DNA of 64,000 nt from Candidatus Kapaibacterium sp. (GCA_963665665.1 OY762428.1:3904001-3968000); one strand, 5' to 3'; shown: positions 44,495 to 57,775, numbered from the stretch's first letter. Made by a program: numbers and translations. Notes: generated from the sequence alone by a model not told the origin.

Positions 44495-46417
44495 ATGGCA
44501 AAGTTTCAGTTTAAGCCGTTCGAGGAAATGACCGAAGACGATTACAGGGAGATCGGCTTTAAATCCGGGCTGGAAGTGCATCAGCAGCTTCTTACCGAGA
44601 AAAAACTATTCTGCCGCTGTCCTGCAGGCAGGTACTCCAAAGAATATAACGCGGAAATTCTCCGCCACATGAGGCCCACGCTTTCCGAGCTTGGCGAATA
44701 TGACGGCACAGCCCTCATGGAATTTAAAACAAAGAAAAATATTACTTACAGAATTAACCGCGAAACAGTATGTACCTACGAAATGGACGATACACCGCCT
44801 TTCGAAATAAATGAACAGGCTTTGGACATCGCTTTTGAAATTGGTATGCTGCTTGACGCAACGCTGGTGGACGAGCTTCATATTGCCAGGAAGCAGTATC
44901 TGGACGGATCAATTCCTACAGGGTTTCAGCGTACAGCTATTACATGCGTTAACGGTGAAGTTCCTTACAAAGACAGAATTATTCACATTATTCAGATGTC
45001 GATAGAAGAGGACTCATGCCGTGAAGCTTCTGATTTGGGCCATGAGAGAATTTATCTGACCGACCGGCTTGGAACTCCCCTGATTGAAACGGTTACTGCT
45101 CCTGAAATGAAAACACCTCAGGAAGTTGCCGAAGTAAACCAGATATTGCGTAAGCTGGTACGTTCAACAGGGCACGTTCGTACTGGTATTGGCGCCGGCC
45201 GCCAGGATGTTAACGTCAGCGTTACAGGTGGAACAAGAATCGAGATCAAGGGCGTTTCAAGAATTCCTTATATTCCACGCCTGACTTATAACGAAGCAAT
45301 GAGGCAGTGGAACCTGTTATTGCTCAGGGATGAACTTCATTCCCGCGGAATTACGGAAGAAACTTTCAAAGCTGATTATACTGACGTAACAAAAGCACTT
45401 AAGAAAACTCTTTACAAACCTGTTCACCAGGCTATTGCAGATGGTAAAACAGTTAACTGCGTAGCGCTGAAAGGATATAAAGGACTTCTTAACTGGCAAA
45501 CACAGACAGATACTTATTTCTCGAAGGAAATATCCGACAGGGTAAGGGTGATTGCATGTATTTCTGAAATACCAAACATTCTTCATTCGGATACCCCGAT
45601 GGACTCCATTTCCACAGCCGAATGGCAAAAGCTCAGGAAACAGATGGAAGCCGATGAAAATGATACTCTCGTTTTGGTTTGGGGATGCCCGGGCGATGCA
45701 GAGACAGGCGCTAAAGAAATTATTATCCGCGCTAAGGAAGCAACAATTGGTATTCCTTCGGAAACCAGGCAGGCTCTGAGGGACGGAACAAATGGCTTTG
45801 AACGTATACTGCCGGGCCCGGAAAGAATGTATCCGGATACCGACCTTCCGCCAAAACGCATAACAGAAGACAGAAAAGCAAGACTCAGGGAAGGACTCCC
45901 GAAATATTTCTGGGACAACATGAAATGGTATTACGAACTCGGTATTCCTGAAGATACAATCGAGCCTCTCTCCTATTCAAAATATGCTCCTCTGTTCGAA
46001 AAACTTGTGAAAGAGCACGAAGTCAGCCCGGTTCTTGCTGCCGTGGTATTAGTTCAAAATATCAAGCGACTGAAAAAACAGGGACTGGATATATTGAAAC
46101 TGACCGACGACATCCTTGAAAATATTTTAATCCTGAATAAAGACGGCCTGCTGCCGGCGGATGCCATTCTTTTTGCAATGCGGGATGCTGTTAAAACAGG
46201 AAAATTTGACAAGGAAATGATCCCCGAAGCAATAAAAGAAGATCAGCTTGAAAAAGAATTTGGCGCAGCTGACAGGAAATTCGGCGACATGGAGATAATC
46301 AATCCGCAAAGCAAACACAAAATCATGGCAGGAATAATGATGGAAGGGCTTCGCTACAGGATTGAAGCAGCTAAAGTTAATGAATTTTTGAAAAATAAAC
46401 TGAACGGGGAGGGCTGA
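44495..46417 (+). CDS. gatE: Glu-tRNA(Gln) amidotransferase subunit E (archaeal type)
   Basis: GLEVHQQL..KKLFCRCP, RPTLSELGEYD, DGSIPTGFQRT, DRLGTPLIE, RQDVNVS..GG.RIEIKGV, ILHSD insertion domain, PGPERMYPDTDLP; 640 aa, longer than GatB. Confidence 0.93.
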   Translation: MAKFQFKPFEEMTEDDYREIGFKSGLEVHQQLLTEKKLFCRCPAGRYSKEYNAEILRHMRPTLSELGEYDGTALMEFKTKKNITYRINRETVCTYEMDDTPPFEINEQALDIAFEIGMLLDATLVDELHIARKQYLDGSIPTGFQRTAITCVNGEVPYKDRIIHIIQMSIEEDSCREASDLGHERIYLTDRLGTPLIETVTAPEMKTPQEVAEVNQILRKLVRSTGHVRTGIGAGRQDVNVSVTGGTRIEIKGVSRIPYIPRLTYNEAMRQWNLLLLRDELHSRGITEETFKADYTDVTKALKKTLYKPVHQAIADGKTVNCVALKGYKGLLNWQTQTDTYFSKEISDRVRVIACISEIPNILHSDTPMDSISTAEWQKLRKQMEADENDTLVLVWGCPGDAETGAKEIIIRAKEATIGIPSETRQALRDGTNGFERILPGPERMYPDTDLPPKRITEDRKARLREGLPKYFWDNMKWYYELGIPEDTIEPLSYSKYAPLFEKLVKEHEVSPVLAAVVLVQNIKRLKKQGLDILKLTDDILENILILNKDGLLPADAILFAMRDAVKTGKFDKEMIPEAIKEDQLEKEFGAADRKFGDMEIINPQSKHKIMAGIMMEGLRYRIEAAKVNEFLKNKLNGEG

Positions 46418-46418
46418 T

Positions 46419-47810
46419 ATGTCTGTAAGTGAAGATTATAAAGGCTACTGGGGCAAAGTGCTCGAAACCCTGCAAAAATTTGAAGCAAAAGTATGGAGCG
46501 ACGTTGAAATATTTACTAATGCGGATGACCACTATATCGGCCTTATTCTGCCACGTTCCGAAACTGCTGACGACCTGCACGTTGTTTTGAAGCTTCGTAC
46601 CGGATATAATGTTGGCATAGCAGTTGAAAAAATTACTGATATTAAAATAAACGGCCGTAAGATTGCCAATTATAAAATTCCGGAACAGGAATTCCCGACA
46701 GATCCTGTGAAACCGAGAGTAAAACTTTTCGGTACCGGCGGAACTATTGCCAGCCGCCTGGACTATCGTACAGGCGCGGTTATACCGGCATTCTCGCCCG
46801 GCGAACTTTATGGTTCGGTGCCGGAACTTGCAGATTATTGCAACCTTGAAACAGAAAAATTATACGGCGTTTTCAGCGAGAATATGGGCCCGGACCAGTG
46901 GAAAGGTACTGCCGAAGCCATTGCAGCCGAAATTGAAAAAGGCGTGCAGGGAATTGTTATCGGGCATGGGACAGATACAATGCACCATACCGCTGCAATT
47001 CTTTCATTCATGATCCAGAACTCGCCGGTTCCTATCGTGATGGTAGGTTCGCAGCGTTCCAGCGACAGGCCGTCGTCCGATGCCGCGCTAAACCTGATCC
47101 ACTCGATAAAAACAGCCTCCGAGTCCGATATAGCTGAAGTAATGGTTTGCATGTTCGGCCCGACTTCAGACACTTACGGCCTGCTGCACCGCGGTACAAG
47201 AGTTAGGAAAATGCACTCCAGCTACCGTTCTACTTTCCGTACAATCGGCGATATTCCTATCGCAATGGTTGACAAGGAAAACATCACACCCATAAGGAAT
47301 GACTACAAACGCAGAAGGCACGACAAAGACTTTATTCTGAAGCCTTATTTCGAGGAAAAAGTAGGGATTCTCTATTATTATCCCAACATGCAGCCTGATA
47401 TGGTGGACATGATGATTGATAATGGCTATAAAGGTATCGTATTTGCCGGAACAGGACTCGGCCATGTGAACAAACCGCTTTACGCAGCGCTGAAACGCGC
47501 TCAGGACAAGGGTGTTGCTGTTTACATGACTGTTCAGACCCTCTGGGGTTACGTGCAGATGTACGTTTACGAAACAGGGCGCGAAATGATGGAACTCGGC
47601 GTTGTGCCTACAGCCAACATGCTTCCCGAAGTTGCTTACATGAAACTTGCATGGGCGCTCGGCCAAACCGACGACCTTGAGAAAGTAAAAGATATAATGC
47701 TCACTCCGGTTGCAGGAGAAATAACCGAACGCGAACCGAGCAACGGTTACCTGATATACCAGGGCGGCATTCCCGAAGTGGAAGAATTTATTTCCAAATA
47801 CAGGAAATAA
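46419..47810 (+). CDS. gatD: Glu-tRNA(Gln) amidotransferase subunit D (asparaginase-like glutaminase)
   Basis: N-terminal VLKLRTGYNVG domain, TGGTIASRLDYRTGAV, SENM, HGTDTM, GSQRSSDRPSSD, GTRVRKMHSS.R, MLPEVAYMKLAW. Confidence 0.95.
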   Translation: MSVSEDYKGYWGKVLETLQKFEAKVWSDVEIFTNADDHYIGLILPRSETADDLHVVLKLRTGYNVGIAVEKITDIKINGRKIANYKIPEQEFPTDPVKPRVKLFGTGGTIASRLDYRTGAVIPAFSPGELYGSVPELADYCNLETEKLYGVFSENMGPDQWKGTAEAIAAEIEKGVQGIVIGHGTDTMHHTAAILSFMIQNSPVPIVMVGSQRSSDRPSSDAALNLIHSIKTASESDIAEVMVCMFGPTSDTYGLLHRGTRVRKMHSSYRSTFRTIGDIPIAMVDKENITPIRNDYKRRRHDKDFILKPYFEEKVGILYYYPNMQPDMVDMMIDNGYKGIVFAGTGLGHVNKPLYAALKRAQDKGVAVYMTVQTLWGYVQMYVYETGREMMELGVVPTANMLPEVAYMKLAWALGQTDDLEKVKDIMLTPVAGEITEREPSNGYLIYQGGIPEVEEFISKYRK

Positions 47811-47950: not shown

Positions 47951-48056
47951 TGTCATCCGCCTGTCCCGACTCGTCGGGGCCGTCGGGTGACATGGCGGTA
48001 TATCTTTTATTGTCCCCCGCTGGCGGGGGTGACCGTTAGGCCGGGGGTGGACTCTT
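47951..48056. repeat. GC-rich REP-like palindromes left of the tandem array
   Basis: TGTCATCCG...CGGGTGACA with internal CCCGACTCGTCGGG; TCCCCCGCTGGCGGGGG...GGGGTGGACTCTT. Confidence 0.65.
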
Positions 48057-48311
48057 CAATCCGTAAATCCGAAGAAGCTTGCGACTGAAAAATCCATATT
48101 CCTAACCCTCCTGCCCGATAACTTAACCCACAGCAACAGCAACGATACAGGAACAAGAAACATTTGCGGGAATAATAAAGATTGATTAAGTTCCGGTAAT
48201 CAATAACAATGCGAAAAAGTTTGAGACCAAATTGAATTTGATATGTTACTAACTATATATAAATAATACTACCCGATGGTAGTAATGTAAAAACAATTAT
48301 AGGGCTTTACC

Positions 48312-49571
48312 ATGAAGAAACTAATTTTACTGGCAGCAATTTTATCATTTTTATTTTCTGCCGGGGCAAGGGCACAGGCCGATTCCCTCGTGATGTGGAC
48401 TTATGGAAATACAAGGTTTTCAACACAGCCGCGAGTACATCCCAACGGCAATGTTTTCATCGGAGATAATCAGGCAAATATAATGGAAATTGACGGTTTA
48501 ACAGGAGAACTTATAAGAAAAATAGCTTTGCCTGCCGGAACAACAAGTTTGGAATTGTCTTTGGATGGTTCGAAAATGGCGGCGGCAGGATATATAATTG
48601 ATGTAGAAAGTGGAGAAGTAATTAAAGCACATCCTGAAGCTTACAAGATAAAATTTCTCCATCCTGACAATTCTAAAATTATTTATGCACCTTTTAATCA
48701 GGCAGAATACAACTTCTTTGTATGGGATATTGAAACCGGGGAATCAGAAAGTTTTGATATCGGAAAAAAATTAATAACTGCGCTGGAAGTATCAAATAAC
48801 GGCAAATTCTTTGCAATTGCAACATTGGAAACCGGATACGATGACGAAGAACACACCCACTTCTACCTTTTCGATGCGCAAACAATGCAGTTTATTAAGG
48901 AACTGGAAGACTATCCTGACAATGGCAGAAGAATTGAGTATATTCAGTTTTCTGAAAATGCTAAGTATGTATGTTATGGGCAAAACAGGTTAGGTTCAAT
49001 AAAAGGTTCATTTTTCTTAACGGAAGCACCGTATTCCAAGTGGATGTTAATAACAGAAACAACCCCGCCTAAAGGTTTTTGGGGTTTAGGTCTGATTGAT
49101 GATAATTATGTTTTTGCAACATCAGATAATGGGCTTGATTTTTATTCAATTATATGGGATATTGATAATGAAAAAGAAATATATTTTTCATCAGAATATG
49201 GTTCTTCAAATCCGCTATACAACTATGCAGCTAAAAATATAATTGTACACGATAATGGAAATCGTACTATTGTCGCCCTTGATTTCGAAAAAATCCTGAG
49301 TACCGTAGGCGTTAAAGATGAGTTGGATACAAACGCGTTCAGGGCTGAATACTCGGGCGGCATACTGACAATAAACGGACTTGAAAGCCAAAGCGTAGAA
49401 ATCAACCTTACAATTAATAATATTCAGGGGGAAGTGGTTTTTTCTCAAAATATCGCTGCTGTTCATGGCTCGCAAATATCGTTGTCCGTATCATTGCCCT
49501 CGGGGGTTTATATTGCCCGAATCAGGACGGGAGAAAATAATTATTCCTCAAAATTTTTAGTGGTGAACTAA
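48312..49571 (+). CDS. Secreted WD40/YVTN-like beta-propeller protein with T9SS-like tail, copy 1 (block type AAAA)
   Basis: Signal peptide ...ARA-Q, repeats such as LELSLDGSK, LEVSNNGKF, IQFSENAKY, WDIE; tail LPSGVYIARI...SKFLVVN. Confidence 0.85.
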   Translation: MKKLILLAAILSFLFSAGARAQADSLVMWTYGNTRFSTQPRVHPNGNVFIGDNQANIMEIDGLTGELIRKIALPAGTTSLELSLDGSKMAAAGYIIDVESGEVIKAHPEAYKIKFLHPDNSKIIYAPFNQAEYNFFVWDIETGESESFDIGKKLITALEVSNNGKFFAIATLETGYDDEEHTHFYLFDAQTMQFIKELEDYPDNGRRIEYIQFSENAKYVCYGQNRLGSIKGSFFLTEAPYSKWMLITETTPPKGFWGLGLIDDNYVFATSDNGLDFYSIIWDIDNEKEIYFSSEYGSSNPLYNYAAKNIIVHDNGNRTIVALDFEKILSTVGVKDELDTNAFRAEYSGGILTINGLESQSVEINLTINNIQGEVVFSQNIAAVHGSQISLSVSLPSGVYIARIRTGENNYSSKFLVVN

Positions 49572-49739
49572 CTCCGCCCCCGCTTTCAGCGCTGACAGGT
49601 TCAACATTGAAAGCGGCGGCTGGAAAAATGAAGAAAAAGCAGGGAATATTGAGACCAAATTGAATTTGATATGTTACTAACTATATATAAATAATACTAC
49701 CCGATGGTAGTAATGTAAAAACAATTATAGGGCTTTACC

Positions 49740-51008
49740 ATGAAAAAACTAATTTTACTGGCAGCGTTTTTATCATTCTTATTTTCTGCCGGGGCAAGGG
49801 CGCAGGCCGATTCCCTCGTGATGTGGACTAATAATGAGGTTCAATTCCACTCCATGCCTGCAATTCATCCCAACGGGAACGTGTTGATACGAAGCCATTA
49901 CGATATCCTGGAAATTAACGGTTTAACCGGCGAAATTATGAGGAATATCAATGTTCCTTTTACAGGTATTGTTAGCGATTGGATTGATATTTCTAAGGAT
50001 GGCACACGTTTCGTAGCTTGCCGGAAGATCGTTAATTTTGAGACAGGGGAAATTATCGGAGAACTGCCGGAGGAAACTGCAATTGTAAAATTTCTCCATC
50101 CTGACAATTCTAAAATTATTTATGCACCTTTTAATCAGGCAGAATACAACTTCTTTGTATGGGATATTGAAACCGGGGAATCAGAAGGTTTTGATATCGG
50201 AAAAAAATTAATAACTGCGCTGGAAGTATCAAATAACGGCAAATTCTTTGCAATTGCAACATTGGAAACCGGATACGATGAAGAAGAACACACCCACTTC
50301 TACCTTTTCGATGCGCAAACAATGCAGTTTATTAAGGAGCTTGAAGACTACCCTGCCAATGGCAGGACAATTGAGTATATTCAGTTTTCTGAAAATGCTA
50401 AATATGTATGTTATGGGCAAAACAGGTTAGGTTCAATAAAAGGTTCATTTTTCTTAACGGAAGCACCGTATTCCAAGTGGATGTTAATAACAGAAACAAC
50501 CCCGCCTAAAGGTTTTTGGGGTTTAGGTCTGATTGATGATAATTATGTTTTTGCAACATCAGATAATGGGCTTGATTTTTATTCAATTATATGGGATATT
50601 GATAATGAAAAAGAAATATATTTTTCATCAGAATATGGCTCTTCAAATCCGCTATACAACTATGCAGCTAAAAATATAATTGTACACGATAATGGAAATC
50701 GTACTATTGTCGCCCTTGATTTCGAAAAAATCCTGAGTACCGTAGGCGTTAAAGATGAGTTGGATACAAACGCGTTCAGGGCTGAATACTCGGGCGGCAT
50801 ACTGACAATAAACGGACTTGAAAGCCAAAGCGTAGAAATCAACCTTACAATTAATAATATTCAGGGGGAAGTGGTTTTTTCTCAAAATATCGCTGCTGTT
50901 CATGGCTCGCAAATATCGTTGCCCGTATCATTGCCCTCGGGGGTTTATATTGCCCGAATCAGGACGGGAGAAAATAATTATTCCTCAAAATTTTTAGTGG
51001 TGAACTAA
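49740..51008 (+). CDS. Beta-propeller/T9SS paralogue, copy 2 (BAAA)
   Basis: N-terminal block like copy 3, remainder like copy 1. Confidence 0.85.
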   Translation: MKKLILLAAFLSFLFSAGARAQADSLVMWTNNEVQFHSMPAIHPNGNVLIRSHYDILEINGLTGEIMRNINVPFTGIVSDWIDISKDGTRFVACRKIVNFETGEIIGELPEETAIVKFLHPDNSKIIYAPFNQAEYNFFVWDIETGESEGFDIGKKLITALEVSNNGKFFAIATLETGYDEEEHTHFYLFDAQTMQFIKELEDYPANGRTIEYIQFSENAKYVCYGQNRLGSIKGSFFLTEAPYSKWMLITETTPPKGFWGLGLIDDNYVFATSDNGLDFYSIIWDIDNEKEIYFSSEYGSSNPLYNYAAKNIIVHDNGNRTIVALDFEKILSTVGVKDELDTNAFRAEYSGGILTINGLESQSVEINLTINNIQGEVVFSQNIAAVHGSQISLPVSLPSGVYIARIRTGENNYSSKFLVVN

Positions 51009-51175
51009 CTCCGCCCCCGCTTTCAGCGCTGACAGGTTCAACATTGAAAGCGGCGGCTGGAAAAATGAAGAAAAAAAGCCGGGAATAATGAGACCAAATT
51101 GAATTTGATATGTTACTATGAATACAAAAACTACCCCTTATGGTAGTAATGTAAAAACAATTATGGGGCTTTACC

Positions 51176-52444
51176 ATGAAAAAACTAATTTTACTGGCAG
51201 CAATTTTATCATTTTTATTTTCCACCGGGGCAAGGGCGCAGGCCGATTCCCTCGTGATGTGGACTAATAATGAGGTATCATTCCACTCCATGCCTGCAAT
51301 TCATCCCAACGGGAACGTGTTGATACGAAGCCATTACGATATCCTGGAAATTAACGGTTTAACCGGCGAAATTATAAGAAATATCAATGTTCCTTTTACA
51401 GGCTATATTAGCGATTTGATTGATATTTCTACGGACGGCACACGTTTCGTAGCTTGCCGGAAAATCGTTGATTTCGAGACAGGGGAAATTATCGGAGAAC
51501 TGCCGGAGGAAACTGCATACGTTAAATTTTTTCATCCGAATAATAATTTGTTGATCTACAAAATAAATACTCTGGAAAATAACCGCTGGTTTATCATGAA
51601 TATTGATCAGGGTAATTCAATTATAGTTGAAAATTTGTCGAATTATACAACAGCCTTTGAAGTATCACTTGACGGCAGGTTTTTAGCACTTGCAACATTA
51701 GAAAACTACGACACAGAAGATGAATCTACCTACTTCTACCTTTTCGATGCGCAAACAATGCAGTTTATCAAGGAGCTTGAAGACTACCCTGCCAATGGCA
51801 GAAGAATTGAGTATATTCAGTTTTCTGAAAATGCTAAATATGTAAGTTATGGACTTAATCATTCTGGCTCACCAAAAGCTGCCATTTTTTTAACGGAAAC
51901 GCCGTATTCAGGGTGGATATTAAAAACTGAAACAACTCCGCCCAAAGGATTTTATGGATTAGGTATGATTGGTGATAAATATGTTTTTGCAACATCAGCT
52001 ATTGGAAATGATTTTCATTCAATTATATGGGATATTGATAATGAAAAAGAAATATATTTTTCATCAGAATATGGTTCTTCAAATCCGCTATACAACTATG
52101 CAGCTAAAAATATAATTGTACACGATAATGGAAATTATACATTAGTCGCCCTTGATTTCGAAAAAATCCTTAGTACCGTGGGCGTTAAAGAAGAAGAGGA
52201 TGCAAACGCGTTCAGGGCTGAATACTCGGGCGGCATATTGACAATAAACGGGCTTGAAAGCCAAAGCGTAGAAATCAACCTTACAATTAATAATATTCAG
52301 GGGGAATTAGTATTTTCTCAAAATATTGCTGCTGTTCATGGCTCGCAAATATCGTTGCCCGTATCATTGCCCTCGGGGGTTTATATTGCCCGGATCAGGA
52401 CGAGAGAAAATAATTATTCCTCTAAATTTTTGGTGGTTAATTAA
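51176..52444 (+). CDS. Beta-propeller/T9SS paralogue, copy 3 (BBBB)
   Basis: Alternative sequence in all four variable blocks. Confidence 0.85.
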   Translation: MKKLILLAAILSFLFSTGARAQADSLVMWTNNEVSFHSMPAIHPNGNVLIRSHYDILEINGLTGEIIRNINVPFTGYISDLIDISTDGTRFVACRKIVDFETGEIIGELPEETAYVKFFHPNNNLLIYKINTLENNRWFIMNIDQGNSIIVENLSNYTTAFEVSLDGRFLALATLENYDTEDESTYFYLFDAQTMQFIKELEDYPANGRRIEYIQFSENAKYVSYGLNHSGSPKAAIFLTETPYSGWILKTETTPPKGFYGLGMIGDKYVFATSAIGNDFHSIIWDIDNEKEIYFSSEYGSSNPLYNYAAKNIIVHDNGNYTLVALDFEKILSTVGVKEEEDANAFRAEYSGGILTINGLESQSVEINLTINNIQGELVFSQNIAAVHGSQISLPVSLPSGVYIARIRTRENNYSSKFLVVN

Positions 52445-52612
52445 CCCCGCCCCCGCTTTCAGCGCTGACAGGTTCAACATTGAAAGCGGCGGCTGGAAAA
52501 ATGAAGAAAAAGCAGGGAATATTGAGACCAAATTGAATTTGATATGTTACTAACTATATATAAATAATACTACCCGATGGTAGTAATGTAAAAACAATTA
52601 TAGGGCTTTACC

Positions 52613-53872
52613 ATGAAGAAACTAATTTTACTGGCAGCAATTTTATCATTTTTATTTTCTGCCGGGGCAAGGGCACAGGCCGATTCCCTCGTGATGTGGA
52701 CTTATGGAAATACAAGGTTTTCAACACAGCCGCGAGTACATCCCAACGGCAATGTTTTCATCGGAGATAATCAGGCAAATATAATGGAAATTGACGGTTT
52801 AACAGGAGAACTTATAAGAAAAATAGCTTTGCCTGCCGGAACAACAAGTTTGGAATTGTCTTTGGATGGTTCGAAAATGGCGGCGGCAGGATATATAATT
52901 GATGTAGAAAGTGGAGAAGTAATTAAAGCACATCCTGAAGCTTACAAGATAAAATTTCTCCATCCTGACAATTCTAAAATTATTTATGCACCTTTTAATC
53001 AGGCAGAATACAACTTCTTTGTATGGGATATTGAAACCGGGGAATCAGAAAGTTTTGATATCGGAAAAAAATTAATAACTGCGCTGGAAGTATCAAATAA
53101 CGGCAAATTCTTTGCAATTGCAACATTGGAAACCGGATACGATGACGAAGAACACACCCACTTCTACCTTTTCGATGCGCAAACAATGCAGTTTATTAAG
53201 GAACTGGAAGACTATCCTGACAATGGCAGAAGAATTGAGTATATTCAGTTTTCTGAAAATGCTAAGTATGTATGTTATGGGCAAAACAGGTTAGGTTCAA
53301 TAAAAGGTTCATTTTTCTTAACGGAAGCACCGTATTCCAAGTGGATGTTAATAACAGAAACAACCCCGCCTAAAGGTTTTTGGGGTTTAGGTCTGATTGA
53401 TGATAATTATGTTTTTGCAACATCAGATAATGGGCTTGATTTTTATTCAATTATATGGGATATTGATAATGAAAAAGAAATATATTTTTCATCAGAATAT
53501 GGTTCTTCAAATCCGCTATACAACTATGCAGCTAAAAATATAATTGTACACGATAATGGAAATCGTACTATTGTCGCCCTTGATTTCGAAAAAATCCTGA
53601 GTACCGTAGGCGTTAAAGATGAGTTGGATACAAACGCGTTCAGGGCTGAATACTCGGGCGGCATACTGACAATAAACGGACTTGAAAGCCAAAGCGTAGA
53701 AATCAACCTTACAATTAATAATATTCAGGGGGAAGTGGTTTTTTCTCAAAATATCGCTGCTGTTCATGGTTCGCAAATATCGTTGTCCGTATCATTGCCC
53801 TCGGGGGTTTATATTGCCCGAATCAGGACGGGAGAAAATAATTATTCCTCAAAATTTTTAGTGGTGAACTAA
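52613..53872 (+). CDS. Beta-propeller/T9SS paralogue, copy 4 (AAAA)
   Basis: Protein identical to copy 1; one synonymous GGC/GGT difference seen near 53770. Confidence 0.85.
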   Translation: MKKLILLAAILSFLFSAGARAQADSLVMWTYGNTRFSTQPRVHPNGNVFIGDNQANIMEIDGLTGELIRKIALPAGTTSLELSLDGSKMAAAGYIIDVESGEVIKAHPEAYKIKFLHPDNSKIIYAPFNQAEYNFFVWDIETGESESFDIGKKLITALEVSNNGKFFAIATLETGYDDEEHTHFYLFDAQTMQFIKELEDYPDNGRRIEYIQFSENAKYVCYGQNRLGSIKGSFFLTEAPYSKWMLITETTPPKGFWGLGLIDDNYVFATSDNGLDFYSIIWDIDNEKEIYFSSEYGSSNPLYNYAAKNIIVHDNGNRTIVALDFEKILSTVGVKDELDTNAFRAEYSGGILTINGLESQSVEINLTINNIQGEVVFSQNIAAVHGSQISLSVSLPSGVYIARIRTGENNYSSKFLVVN

Positions 53873-54040
53873 CTCCGCCCCCGCTTTCAGCGCTGACAGG
53901 TTCAACATTGAAAGCGGCGGCTGGAAAAATGAAGAAAAAGCAGGGAATATTGAGACCAAATTGAATTTGATATGTTACTAACTATATATAAATAATACTA
54001 CCCGATGGTAGTAATGTAAAAACAATTATGGGGCTTTACC

Positions 54041-55300
54041 ATGAAAAAACTAATTTTATTCACAGCAATTTTATCATTTTTATTATCTGCCGGGGCAAGG
54101 GCACAGGCCGATTCCCTCGTGATGTGGACTTATGGAAATACAAGGTTTTCAACACAGCCGCGAGTACATCCCAACGGCAATGTTTTCATCGGAGATAATC
54201 AGGCAAATATAATGGAAATTGACGGTTTAACAGGAGAACTTATAAGAAAAATAGCTTTGCCTGCCGGAACAACAAGTTTGGAATTGTCTTTGGATGGTTC
54301 GAAAATGGCGGCGGCAGGATATATAATTGATGTAGAAAGTGGAGAAGTAATTAAAGCACATCCTGCAGCTTACAAGATAAAATTTCTCCATCCTGACAAT
54401 TCTAAAATTATTTATGCACCTTTTAATCAGGCAGAATACAACTTCTTTGTATGGGATATTGAAACCGGGGAATCAGAAAGTTTTGATATCGGAAAAAAAT
54501 TAATAACTGCGCTGGAAGTATCAAATAACGGCAAATTCTTTGCAATTGCAACATTGGAAACCGGATACGATGACGAAGAACACACCCACTTCTACCTTTT
54601 CGATGCGCAAACAATGCAGTTTATTAAGGAGCTTGAAGACTACCCTGCCAATGGCAGAAGAATTGAGTATATTCAGTTTTCTGAAAATGCTAAGTATGTA
54701 AGTTATGGACTTAATCATTCTGGCTCACCAAAAGCTGCCATTTTTTTAACGGAAACGCCGTATTCAGGGTGGATATTAAAAACTGAAACAACTCCGCCCA
54801 AAGGATTTTATGGATTAGGTATGATTGGTGATAAATATGTTTTTGCAACATCAGCTATTGGAAATGATTTTCATTCAATTATATGGGATATTGATAATGA
54901 AAAAGAAATATATTTTTCATCAGAATATGGTTCTTCAAATCCGCTATACAACTATGCAGCTAAAAATATAATTGTACACGATAATGGAAATTATACATTA
55001 GTCGCCCTTGATTTCGAAAAAATCCTTAGTACCGTGGGCGTTAAAGAAGAAGAGGATGCAAACGCGTTCAGGGCTGAATACTCTGGCGGGATACTGACAA
55101 TAAACGGGCTTGAAAGCCAAAGCGTAGAAATCAACCTTACAATTAATAATATTCAGGGGGAAGTGGTTTTTTCTCAAAATATTGCTGCTGTTCAGGGTTC
55201 GCAAATATCGTCGCCCGTATCATTGCCCTCGGGGGTTTATATTGCCCGGATCAGGACGGGAGAAAATAATTATTCCTCAAAATTTATCGTGGTTAACTAA
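54041..55300 (+). CDS. Beta-propeller/T9SS paralogue, copy 5 (AABB)
   Basis: First half like copies 1 and 4, second half like copy 3. Confidence 0.85.
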   Translation: MKKLILFTAILSFLLSAGARAQADSLVMWTYGNTRFSTQPRVHPNGNVFIGDNQANIMEIDGLTGELIRKIALPAGTTSLELSLDGSKMAAAGYIIDVESGEVIKAHPAAYKIKFLHPDNSKIIYAPFNQAEYNFFVWDIETGESESFDIGKKLITALEVSNNGKFFAIATLETGYDDEEHTHFYLFDAQTMQFIKELEDYPANGRRIEYIQFSENAKYVSYGLNHSGSPKAAIFLTETPYSGWILKTETTPPKGFYGLGMIGDKYVFATSAIGNDFHSIIWDIDNEKEIYFSSEYGSSNPLYNYAAKNIIVHDNGNYTLVALDFEKILSTVGVKEEEDANAFRAEYSGGILTINGLESQSVEINLTINNIQGEVVFSQNIAAVQGSQISSPVSLPSGVYIARIRTGENNYSSKFIVVN

Positions 55301-55343
55301 GGGGTAAAAAATGAAAAAGATAATTCACAATAGTATTTATTGA
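55301..55343 (+). pseudogene. Possible 5' remnant of a deleted secreted-protein gene
   Basis: AAGGGG RBS plus ATG AAA AAG ATA ATT (MKKII), fused to the array's 3' hairpin sequence. Confidence 0.4.
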
Positions 55344-55415
55344 ACTAACCCCGCCCACGCTTTCAGCGCTGATAAGTTCAGGATTGAAAGCGGCGGCTGT
55401 CCCTCAACTCAACCA

Positions 55416-55600
55416 TCATCCAATTCAATAGCCACGTGCTTTAGCTCGTGGGTAAGGGAGGCAAAGAAAAAGAATCCACCCCGACTCGCTGCGCTCGCCA
55501 CCCCTCAACGAGGGGAATTTTCCGGAAGTCCATACCCGTCTGCTTGCGCAGACACCTCCTGCCTGTCCCGCTCCATCGGAAATAGATCGGAGTCGGCGAA
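55416..55600. repeat. Cluster of REP-like palindromes right of the array
   Basis: CCACGTGCTTTAGCTCGTGG; TCCACCCCGACTCGCTGCGCTCGCCACCCCTCAACGAGGGGA; GCCTGTCCCG shared with 47959. Confidence 0.7.
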
Positions 55601-55660
55601 AGCTGGGAATTAAACAGATGCAAAACAATTTAAAAGTGTACCAAATAGGATTGTATTTTA

Positions 55661-57775
55661 TTATTCCACTACCAGCGGCCTGCCCTTAAAATTGCCATCA
55701 ATATCCAAAATGACGAGAATATAAACTCCTTTTGGTAATTCTCTAATATTCATCCGAAGATCATAACCGGCTGAAGTTAGCTGTTTGATATTTTTTTTCT
55801 TTACTACCTGTCCTGCAAGATTATAAATAATGATATCATTCAGGTAAATACTTTCATTAATTGTGATATTGATATTTTCATTTGCAGGAATCGGATAAAT
55901 GAAGAAGTCTTTACCAATTTTAGCAATTTCCGGATTATCTTCAACCGAAACGGGATCCGGTTTATATTTTACAATACCATTGCTTGTTGTAATCCAAAAA
56001 TATCCTTTTGAATCCTGAAATATATCCGTTAACCAATTTGAAGGCAAATTACTATTTAGAATATTAAATACTTTCCAGTCCTGCCGATCAAAGACAGCAA
56101 GGCCTTTATATTGAGAAGCAACCCAAATATTGTTCTGTATATCAGAAATTATTGAATTTACAAACTTACAGATACCAGGAATATCAAACGGGTAAGCCTT
56201 ATTCCAGGTTTGAACGTTAAATCGATATAATTGGTCACAGAATAAACCGACCCATAAATCGCCATTAGTTTCCCTAAAAATCGATCTGACCGGCTTGCCG
56301 TTCATAGTGCTGTCTGATACCGAAAATGCGGACCATTCGTTTCCGTTAAAACAAAGTAAACTGCGATTATACATTCCGAACCAGATATTTTTTTCCGAAT
56401 CTTCATAAATACTTGTTACTTTGATGTCAGGAATGTTACTATTAGCCGAATTAAATGTTACCCAGTTATAACCATCAAATCTGAAAATATTGTTTTCTTC
56501 ATCACTAATCCAGATATTATTTTTGGAATCAATGAAAAATGTATTGATCTTGATAAATGGATATCCATTTTCAGTTGAATCTAGCTGTATCAATTTATTT
56601 CCGGTAAGTTTGTAAATACTGTTTTCCGTGGCAAACCAAATATTTTTCGTATCGTCAATTTCGATTCCGAATATATAATTGTGGGGCAGGATTGTATCAG
56701 GCTTTAAATTATTCCATTTTCCATCCTGATAAAACATTATCTGATCTAAGAATTTCCCGGTCCAGATTGTTCCGTTTTTTCCTTCGAGTAGATAATTGAA
56801 ATGAGAATCCGGTAGAGCCGAATTACTAAGATTTCTTGCAGACCACTCGAGACCATCAAACTTATCAAGCATTCCATATGCATTACCAACCCAAATATTT
56901 CCAGCAGAATCAAAGTATAACGAATTAATACCATCATCTGATAATCCTGAATTATCTGAAGTAAAATTTATCCATTCGGAATTACTTTGTTTCAGGAGGC
57001 CTGATGATTTTGTTCCCAGCCATAAATTACCTTCCTTATCCTCGCTGATAGCAGTAATCTCGCAATCTGGAATATTAGAATTGCCATAAAATTGCACTGT
57101 CCAATGTCCATCATCGTACTTAGTTATACCTTTATCCGTGCCAAACCAGATGTTTCCTTTCGAATCACAATAGGCAGAATGAATTGAAAGACTCAACAAA
57201 GCTGAATTATTTTCATAAAAAGTCTTGAAGCTTTCTCCGTCATATTGTGTTACTCCTTTACTCGTTACAAACCATATATTACCGGATTTATCTCCGAAAA
57301 TTTTTGTAACTCTTCTGTCGGCAAGCCCATCTTCAGTAGAATAGCAAGTAGTATCTTTTCCATCGTAAAAAATTACACCGTGATTATCTGTACCAAACCA
57401 GAAATTTTGATCCGAATCAATATAGAAACATATAGGATATCCATAGGTATCAGAATATTGTGATAATATATCAAATTTTAAATTTTCTGTATTCATCCTA
57501 TATAGATATCTTCCAAATAAAAATATTTCATTGTTTTCATTTATTTGAATATCATGAAAATTATAAGATTTCAGATCTGTATTTGTAGGATTGTAATGAC
57601 TTATGGTTTCGCTTGTTTTATCCATTCTAACCAGCCCTTTGTCCGTTGCAAACCAAATATAATTTCCATTTTCAAGAATGTCATCTATATTTTGTATTTT
57701 ACTGTAAACAGTCCACTCCTCAGCGTGGATATATGATACAAATACAATCATTAATAAAATTGTAAGTCTTTTCAT
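55661..57775 (-). CDS. Secreted two-component-regulator-propeller (Reg_prop) repeat protein with T9SS sorting domain
   Basis: Many D..GN[IL]W[FV]GT..G repeats with NS.LP spacers; tail IYPIPA...LPKGVYIL. Confidence 0.88.
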   Translation of the reverse strand: MKRLTILLMIVFVSYIHAEEWTVYSKIQNIDDILENGNYIWFATDKGLVRMDKTSETISHYNPTNTDLKSYNFHDIQINENNEIFLFGRYLYRMNTENLKFDILSQYSDTYGYPICFYIDSDQNFWFGTDNHGVIFYDGKDTTCYSTEDGLADRRVTKIFGDKSGNIWFVTSKGVTQYDGESFKTFYENNSALLSLSIHSAYCDSKGNIWFGTDKGITKYDDGHWTVQFYGNSNIPDCEITAISEDKEGNLWLGTKSSGLLKQSNSEWINFTSDNSGLSDDGINSLYFDSAGNIWVGNAYGMLDKFDGLEWSARNLSNSALPDSHFNYLLEGKNGTIWTGKFLDQIMFYQDGKWNNLKPDTILPHNYIFGIEIDDTKNIWFATENSIYKLTGNKLIQLDSTENGYPFIKINTFFIDSKNNIWISDEENNIFRFDGYNWVTFNSANSNIPDIKVTSIYEDSEKNIWFGMYNRSLLCFNGNEWSAFSVSDSTMNGKPVRSIFRETNGDLWVGLFCDQLYRFNVQTWNKAYPFDIPGICKFVNSIISDIQNNIWVASQYKGLAVFDRQDWKVFNILNSNLPSNWLTDIFQDSKGYFWITTSNGIVKYKPDPVSVEDNPEIAKIGKDFFIYPIPANENINITINESIYLNDIIIYNLAGQVVKKKNIKQLTSAGYDLRMNIRELPKGVYILVILDIDGNFKGRPLVVE

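Follow-up and report, generated by a model that had tools for sequence, protein, structure and literature searches.

Mosaic beta-propeller genes in a Kapabacteria-type bacterium: a lineage-restricted family, probably exported by a type IX system and diversified by homologous recombination

Mosaic multigene families shaped by gene conversion are textbook material for a handful of pathogens. At pilE/pilS and vlsE, for instance, segmental gene conversion supplies a single expression site from silent, truncated donor cassettes with the aid of dedicated cis elements, and the mosaics of the Neisseria opa genes arise by recombination among loci. For uncultured environmental bacteria there are few accounts of such families, since assembly from short reads fragments or collapses them. 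Here we describe a tandem array of five beta-propeller genes (u1 to u5) in a 64,000-nucleotide stretch of the genome of Candidatus Kapaibacterium sp. (GCA_963665665.1 OY762428.1:3904001-3968000; hereafter the window, whose positions are used unless stated otherwise), together with its relatives elsewhere in that genome. We consider it probable that these genes belong to a lineage-restricted multigene family of a Kapabacteria-type bacterium, encoding mosaic propellers that are cargo of the type IX secretion system (T9SS) and have been diversified by homologous recombination. Such a family is not described in the portions of the literature on Kapabacteria type IX secretion and on mosaic beta-propeller paralogs that our search returned.

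The closest analogue in kind is the Neisseria opa family. According to one account, opa genes occupy several complete, dispersed loci, each of them expressible, their variable regions occur as discrete alleles, and long reads are needed to read them (PMC13183285). The genes described here resemble opa in having a conserved framework with a few variable regions whose discrete alleles are re-assorted between loci, and in the presence of near-identical pairs within one genome (here u1 and u4) that need long reads to be resolved. The Opa proteins are presented there as 8-stranded outer-membrane barrels of a human pathogen, phase-variable by means of a coding pentamer repeat and exchanging short loops, whereas the present family encodes a WD40-like T9SS propeller and comes from an environmental lineage not in culture, a search for phase-variation repeats found none, and the exchanged units comprise about two blades at ~40% identity.

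In fold, the nearest counterpart is the NWD/het-e WD-repeat family of Podospora anserina, in which WD repeats of het-d, het-e and other NWD genes are exchanged within and between ~10 loci under concerted evolution (PMC1805685). There, as here, a WD40 propeller is the diversified module, and variability is concentrated on the interaction face, as it may be in our family. The Podospora proteins are, however, eukaryotic and intracellular (resembling nucleotide-binding leucine-rich-repeat receptors), near-identical repeats are shuffled between positions, and four codons are under positive selection; in our family the blades of one protein are not detectably alike in DNA, exchange is positional, and the ratio of nonsynonymous to synonymous divergence (dN/dS) is below 1. 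With regard to secretion route, the closest parallel is the domain mosaicism of the gingipains and HagA of Porphyromonas gingivalis, T9SS cargo whose discrete domain variants form mosaics unrelated to genome phylogeny, attributed by the authors to domain rearrangement and genetic exchange (PMC5266723). Those mosaics involve adhesin and catalytic domains of large proteases and exchange mainly between pathogen strains, unlike the sub-domain blocks of one closed propeller that are exchanged here among eight paralogs within one genome.

The source genome (G000) is one closed contig of 5,458,198 bases, with a completeness of 99.5% and a contamination of 0.8%. The array consists of five tandem open reading frames, all on the plus strand between 48312 and 55300, with products of 419-422 amino acids (aa). 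The first-pass annotation of the window had delimited the array and its motifs, and had described conserved spacers within the genes that separate four variable blocks (V1 to V4), each occurring as two alleles, A and B; all of this proved correct. The block patterns it had assigned were likewise recovered: AAAA for u1 (48312-49571, 419 aa), BAAA for u2 (49740-51008, 422 aa), BBBB for u3 (51176-52444, 422 aa), AAAA for u4 (52613-53872, 419 aa) and AABB for u5 (54041-55300, 419 aa). Relative to u1, protein identity is 87% for u2, 71% for u3, 100% for u4 and 92% for u5. The u1 and u4 genes differ at a single base (49469) across the 1451-bp unit at 48221-49671, and share identical tracts of 1248 and 259 bp.

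At the DNA level we took u1 as the reference for haplotype A and u3 as that for haplotype B. On this basis the B-like part of u2 spans 49802 to 50085, where ~15 sites are private or in a third state; beginning at 50087 the remainder of the gene is A-like, apart from a small five-site B patch at 50339-50402. The u5 gene is A-like up to 54625 and B-like at 54631-55058, with mixed sites in the sequence for its C-terminal sorting domain. Each array mosaic has one main breakpoint between the two parental haplotypes, and the computed positions match the switch points noticed on inspection (near 50088 and at 54590-54630). The mosaics of u2, u5 and the dispersed paralog p6 are far beyond chance: the maximum chi-square was 228.5 for u2 (272 sites), 231.9 for u5 (278 sites) and 194.4 for p6 (274 sites), values attained by 0 of 2000 permutations in each case. 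The control, u4, is A-like at 279 of 279 sites in this test, without a breakpoint, and it has the A state at all 306 informative sites of the haplotype comparison, plus one private change. Across the eight close paralogs of the genome, the incompatibility of neighbouring informative sites was 0.20 as compared to 0.40 +/- 0.006 after permutation, and none of 300 permutations gave a value as low.

The genome holds 13 matches to u1, comprised of the five array genes, the close paralogs p6, p7 and p8, the more distant cousins q9, q10 and q11, and two matches to the sorting domain only. The eight close copies, all of them complete, lie at three loci. At G000:4783082-4784350, on the minus strand, p6 has the pattern BBAA, a combination that had been predicted as possible before this paralog was known. 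The tandem pair p8-p7, at G000:2804054-2806790, combines BCBB in p7, with a third V2 allele, and BBDD in p8, whose C-terminal half is different. All four combinations of A and B halves are therefore present in one genome (AA-AA in u1, AA-BB in u5, BB-AA in p6 and BB-BB in u3), which requires recombination. Moreover, exact-identity tracts that cross variable blocks link u1 with p6 (267 bp), u3 with p7 (233, 224 and 184 bp) and p6 with p8 (381 bp); the loci sharing them stand 0.8-2 Mb apart, and the exchange or copying must therefore have been recent. The original suggestion, that paralogs recombine or undergo gene conversion at conserved spacers, is thus supported by the maximum chi-square results, by the mosaics and by the shared identical tracts. 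The genes flanking the three loci are mutually unrelated, and inspection of them (no family scan was made) revealed no obvious mobile element. We also note that the region immediately 3' of p7 (G000:C1:2806891-2807914) is highly repetitive, with overlapping reading frames in several frames and short peptide repeats.

That the four blocks assort separately could not be concluded from the array alone, and it is only with the dispersed paralogs and other assemblies that this part of the first-pass annotation stands. A second assembly (contigs of 147,302 and 38,723 bases) encodes seven members with the patterns AAEE, AAFF, BCBA, BADD, BCEE, BBDD and BBFF, which brings the two assemblies to 13 distinct patterns among 15 proteins, and a 444-bp contig from a run of another study links a B-type V3 to an A-type V4, as in BCBA. 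There are at least two alleles of V1, three of V2 and five of V3/V4. In a metagenome-assembled genome (MAG) of another species, with ~47% identity, two family members (L016 and L017) have the same V1 and V3 and a different V2, separated by the same joints; the contigs of this MAG break inside family genes, which is what short-read assembly of a repeated family would be expected to give. As a separate observation, the BADD member of the second assembly (P0008) loses its frame inside the sorting domain, such that its last ~21 residues are unrelated, and may represent either a pseudogene or an assembly indel.

The products carry the marks of secreted proteins, in agreement with the initial description of secreted or surface beta-propellers. 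In u1 a putative signal peptide is followed by a propeller (aa 27-324), a linker and, at aa 344-417, a T9SS type A sorting domain, the last of which exceeds the cut-offs of both PF18962 (34.5 bits against 27, aa 350-417) and TIGR04183 (34.2 bits against 23). Sequence and model suggest a Sec signal peptide at the N-terminus, which begins with MKK, forms a hydrophobic helix over aa 2-18 and reads A-R-A at aa 19-21. The genome encodes T9SS machinery, as judged by PorU (NF033707, 853 bits, cut-off 420) and SprA (TIGR04189, 957 bits, cut-off 200). Most likely, then, the propellers are exported by the type IX system and would be either displayed on the cell surface or released from it.

The propeller belongs to no curated sequence family: the Pfam WD40 and propeller models remained below their cut-offs, the best being Beta-prop_EML_2 (18.8 bits against 90) and PQQ_2 (15.8 against 27.6). 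An AlphaFold2 model built with 58 family sequences (predicted local distance difference test 88.3, predicted template modelling (TM) score 0.74) places 28 strands at aa 27 to 324 and contains, besides, a short helix, a linker of low confidence (aa 333-340) and a beta-sandwich (aa 344-417). In Foldseek it is closest to seven-bladed WD40 domains, among them a Thermomonospora WD40 domain (5yzv_B), WDR5 and Swd1, with E values of ~1e-13 and TM scores of 0.65-0.73 on the target. A look-up in the ESM Atlas gave scores of at most 0.84 to generic propeller clusters and serves as a lead only. The model is consistent with seven four-stranded blades, with an N-terminal 'velcro' strand that, from the order of the strands, would close blade 7.

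To place the exchanged blocks on this fold we used the DSSP strings of the model together with the canonical WD40 topology, which we take to apply here. The blocks had been thought to correspond to single blades; the model instead shows units of two-blade size that are offset from the blade boundaries. In these assignments V1 covers blades 1-2, and the KF[LF]HP joint that follows would form strand A of blade 3. V2 would then extend over strands B-D of blade 3 and strands A-B of blade 4, the next joint (S2) over strands C-D of blade 4 and strand A of blade 5, V3 over strands B-D of blade 5 and strands A-B of blade 6, and the joint S3 over strands C-D of blade 6 and strands A-B of blade 7, which leaves the last strand of blade 7 and the linker for V4. 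If the loops of u1 and u3 are sorted into a top and a bottom face by the topology assumed, 33 of 73 residues are identical in the top-face loops as compared to 47 of 65 in the bottom-face loops (Fisher p 0.0018); within V1-V3 only, the figures are 23 of 61 and 27 of 44 (p 0.019). This gives a hint, though only a hint, that variability may be concentrated in the loops of the canonical top face.

The alleles of neighbouring blocks differ greatly in age, as follows from their synonymous divergence (dS) between u1 and u3, which is 3.1 (saturated) in V1, 0.82 in V2, 0.30 in S2, 0.52 in V3, 0 in S3, 0.36 in V4 and 0.20 in the sorting domain. Homologues at 44-48% identity come from records labelled Candidatus Kapaibacterium and similar. 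Their V1 sides with either the A or the B form (54 vs 41%, or 50 vs 40%), and their V2 is nearest to the C form (53% vs 30% or less). For the sorting domain, identity is 92-100% among the copies of the genome but only 25-48% to these same homologues. It follows that the block alleles predate the species and that flanks and joints evolve in concert: the blocks have been re-assorted and yet not homogenised, while their flanks have. The family as a whole is small, with 153 of 1.84 billion cluster representatives matching at E <= 0.001 and 42 at E <= 1e-10, and its homologues carry generic annotations only. Among 40 GTDB relatives searched, three genomes had a match at E <= 1e-10, one each and at no more than 32% identity. 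The cousins q9 (G000:C1:3451463-3452740), q10 (3437647-3438924) and q11 (658025-659302) are 425-aa proteins with propeller and sorting domain that are only 26% identical to u1; q10 and q11 form a 1611-bp duplicate, 98.7% identical over a distance of 2.8 Mb, and both have the family's 3' stem-loop.

Several points weigh against our reading. Firstly, the order and copy number of the array genes rest on the assembly, as the short-read contigs of four runs are in pieces of at most ~450 bp throughout the array, with none spanning it, and depth in these contigs is uninformative there, each piece fitting several copies. Secondly, the second assembly and the MAG of the other species may themselves be short-read, in which case identical joints of up to 119 bp could create chimeras. 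Taken to its conclusion, this line of argument would make the mosaics, or the number and order of the copies, chimeras of strain variants or paralogs joined through identical spacers, with only unmixed genes at the true locus; the identical joints are indeed long, one of 119 bp lying at 49144-49262 and one of 100 bp within the spacer, and a related strain with other combinations in another sample means that mixed populations are possible. We nevertheless regard an assembly artefact as very unlikely. The genome is a single closed contig of high completeness, and u1 and u4 are placed apart despite near identity over 1.45 kb, which implies spanning long reads, since short reads alone could not have resolved them. 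Mosaics are also found at the two other loci, which are bordered by unique DNA, the breakpoints are clean over 50-150 consecutive informative sites, and in the other species the same joints occur in contigs that stop at them instead of crossing them. Two contig joints, 51447>54568 and 54714>55010, would fit contigs of the paralogs p7 (C block) and p8 (D block) rather than deletions. An exact 60-nt word spanning the u5 breakpoint had 0 matches in the metagenome contigs.

The remaining points on that side concern expression, structure and function. Eight runs are listed for the locus and none is recorded as RNA, so the copies can only be presumed to be expressed; blades and faces were assigned from the DSSP strings of one model and the canonical WD40 topology rather than from coordinates; and that the propellers serve to diversify anything is something we only infer. 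Between alleles, dN/dS stays under 1 in all blocks (0.04 to 0.77, with the maximum in V2), so that neither positive nor diversifying selection is indicated. The divergent blocks could persist merely because divergence itself blocks conversion. One might thus see in the family a neutral by-product, in which old tandem paralogs recombine occasionally and without adaptive role, mismatches bringing conversion tracts to a halt. The low dN/dS would fit this, as would the order A, B/A, B of u1, u2 and u3, which one unequal crossover in an A-B pair would yield exactly as its duplication product, and the lack of specialised machinery among the features sought (inverted repeats, a tyrosine recombinase nearby, G-quadruplex (G4) motifs and phase-variation repeats). 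Against it, the A- and B-like V1 and the C-like V2 have been kept in 44-48% homologues of other organisms while the flanks were homogenised per genome, the same joints recur in another species, the top-face loops of u1 and u3 are less identical than the bottom-face loops, and dN/dS in V2 reaches 0.77. Such a neutral origin is therefore possible but in our view doubtful. Persistence of the divergent blocks has two readings, selection for different binding surfaces or mismatches that halt conversion. The bias in the top-face loops speaks for the former, as does the fact that other species have kept the same allele classes; a dN/dS below 1 lends it no positive support.

Ordinary homology-dependent exchange most likely accounts for the mosaics, the array genes undergoing unequal crossing-over and loci at distances of 0.8-2 Mb exchanging sequence by gene conversion. 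The exchange points fall in near-identical stretches: the 5' module including the signal peptide, the strand of blade 3 that carries KF[LF]HP, the stretch over strands C-D of blade 4 and strand A of blade 5, that over strands C-D of blade 6 and strands A-B of blade 7, and the sorting domain. The breakpoints lie at the edges of the conserved joints, where crossovers between diverged sequences can both happen and be detected. The order u1 (A), u2 (B/A), u3 (B) is just what would result if the two genes of an A-B pair, B with A, underwent one unequal crossover; u4 is probably a very recent copy or conversion of u1, and u5 requires one further exchange, in S2. Small patches, among them that at 50339-50402, and isolated sorting-domain sites have the appearance of short conversion tracts. 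The outcome is a set of co-encoded propellers that differ in sets of about two blades, and most of all in the loops assigned to the top face.

Alternatively, the family might be subject to programmed variation, in which cassette donation to an expression site, site-specific inversion or a diversity-generating retroelement would switch propellers. In its favour one could cite only that mosaic surface-protein families are broadly like antigenic-variation loci and that the 5' module is very highly conserved. The eight close copies are, however, all full length and provided with upstream region, signal peptide and sorting domain, and the five array genes lie on one strand, where the inverted repeats are no better than 79% over 19-26 nt. 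Of the 10 PF00589 (tyrosine recombinase) matches in the genome, 0 fall in the window or less than 30 kb from a family locus, and to this extent the earlier statement that the window lacks a recombinase holds, serine recombinases and reverse transcriptases not having been searched. The array has no G4 motif, its longest homopolymer is 7, and its short repeats extend only to (TA)4; Tandem Repeats Finder returned nothing, because the unit of ~1430 bp exceeds its longest period. We judge programmed switching to be highly improbable.

Individual mechanisms of this kind were rejected on the same grounds. Cassette-type antigenic variation, as in pilE/pilS and vlsE, likewise yields mosaic surface proteins, but here every copy is complete, and we found no silent truncated donor cassettes, no expression site and no such cis element. 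A shufflon or invertase lacks convincing inverted repeats and a PF00589 match in the window (with serine recombinases outside the search), phase variation lacks tandem repeats, and G4-dependent conversion lacks its motif. The targets of diversity-generating retroelements also differ from these genes, in which indels and ~60% amino-acid divergence extend over whole blocks (no search for a reverse transcriptase was made). The likeness to antigenic variation that the first-pass annotation had drawn consequently survives for the multi-locus type with all copies complete, as in opa, and fails for the cassette type.

A bolder proposal is that the family constitutes a bacterial surface recognition repertoire, in which conserved adapter strands of blades 3, 4-5 and 6-7 would provide built-in joints for recombining old, trans-species two-blade modules into new top-face binding surfaces. 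These might help to tell kin from non-self, to recognise partners or prey, or to evade phages for which the propeller is the receptor. This would represent a prokaryotic, extracellular counterpart of fungal WD40 allorecognition, with balancing selection keeping the alleles; we offer it as conjecture and think it improbable as it stands. Irrespective of this, the family presents a closed seven-bladed propeller with interchangeable parts at ~40% identity, which bears on how far propellers tolerate swaps of blade sets and on the engineering of chimeric propellers. It also represents an uncharacterised family of T9SS cargo, whose promoter-plus-signal-peptide module, sorting domain and internal joints evolve in concert while the blocks of its binding face are old and distinct. 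Should the diversity prove functional, it would provide a testable model for surface-recognition repertoires beyond host-pathogen systems.

The 5' module of the family measures ~300 bp, from about -240 to +57 (codon 19), and is 92-99% identical before u1, p6, p8, q10 and q11, the identity collapsing where the signal peptide ends; q10 and q11 thus carry the same module even though their mature proteins are only 26% identical to u1. Its upstream part was matched by BLAST over 224-244 bp before p6, p8, q10 and q11. At the array, BLAST and alignment place the distal part at 48073-48220 (plus strand, as for all features of the array), and this portion occurs only before the first gene of each locus. 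The 91-bp proximal region at 48221-48311 precedes every copy and is 87-100% identical before u2-u5, p6, p7, p8, q10 and q11; it contains a promoter-like TTGATA-18-AATAAT and a small hairpin. The homology of the repeat unit begins here, at 48221, and ends with the terminal hairpin at ~55351-55397.

The intergenic spacers measure 168, 167, 168 and 168 bp in order (49572-49739, 51009-51175, 52445-52612 and 53873-54040), the second being the most diverged of the four, at ~91% identity to the first. Each spacer starts with a stem-loop (at ~49573-49624 in the first, followed by the 91-bp upstream region), which has a predicted folding energy (dG) of -26.4 kcal/mol, a z score of -3.8 and no U run. 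The terminal copy at 55351-55397, with a dG of -23.6 kcal/mol and a z score of -3.2, marks the end of the array and has been shifted by an insertion of ~48 bp after the u5 stop codon. Rfam gave a single sub-threshold chance match, outside the array. The array copies are each full length, with upstream region, start codon, signal peptide and stop codon, and every copy looks expressible, being preceded by a conserved upstream region of its own and followed by a strong stem-loop; the copies may be expressed together.

Repeats of other kinds border the array on both sides. Just 5' of the 5' module, a ~43-nt repeat at 48011-48054 recurs at least 15 times elsewhere in the genome (88-91% identity). 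Just 3' of the array, the segment at 55400-55640 contains a short dispersed repeat with 122 BLAST matches in the genome (78-94% over ~110-190 bp) and very high depth in the short-read contigs, and looks like a family of elements resembling repetitive extragenic palindromes or miniature inverted-repeat transposable elements. The convergent neighbour at 55661-57775, on the minus strand, encodes a protein of 704 aa that combines seven Reg_prop repeats with a T9SS sorting domain and has a partial, sub-threshold likeness to PorZ (98 bits against a cut-off of 260). On the other side, at 44495-47810 on the plus strand, lie adjacent genes for archaeal-type GatE (523 and 439 bits) and GatD (510 bits), over the NCBIfam equivalog cut-offs, such that the genes for an archaeal-type Glu-tRNA(Gln) amidotransferase sit in an otherwise bacterial, T9SS-bearing genome.

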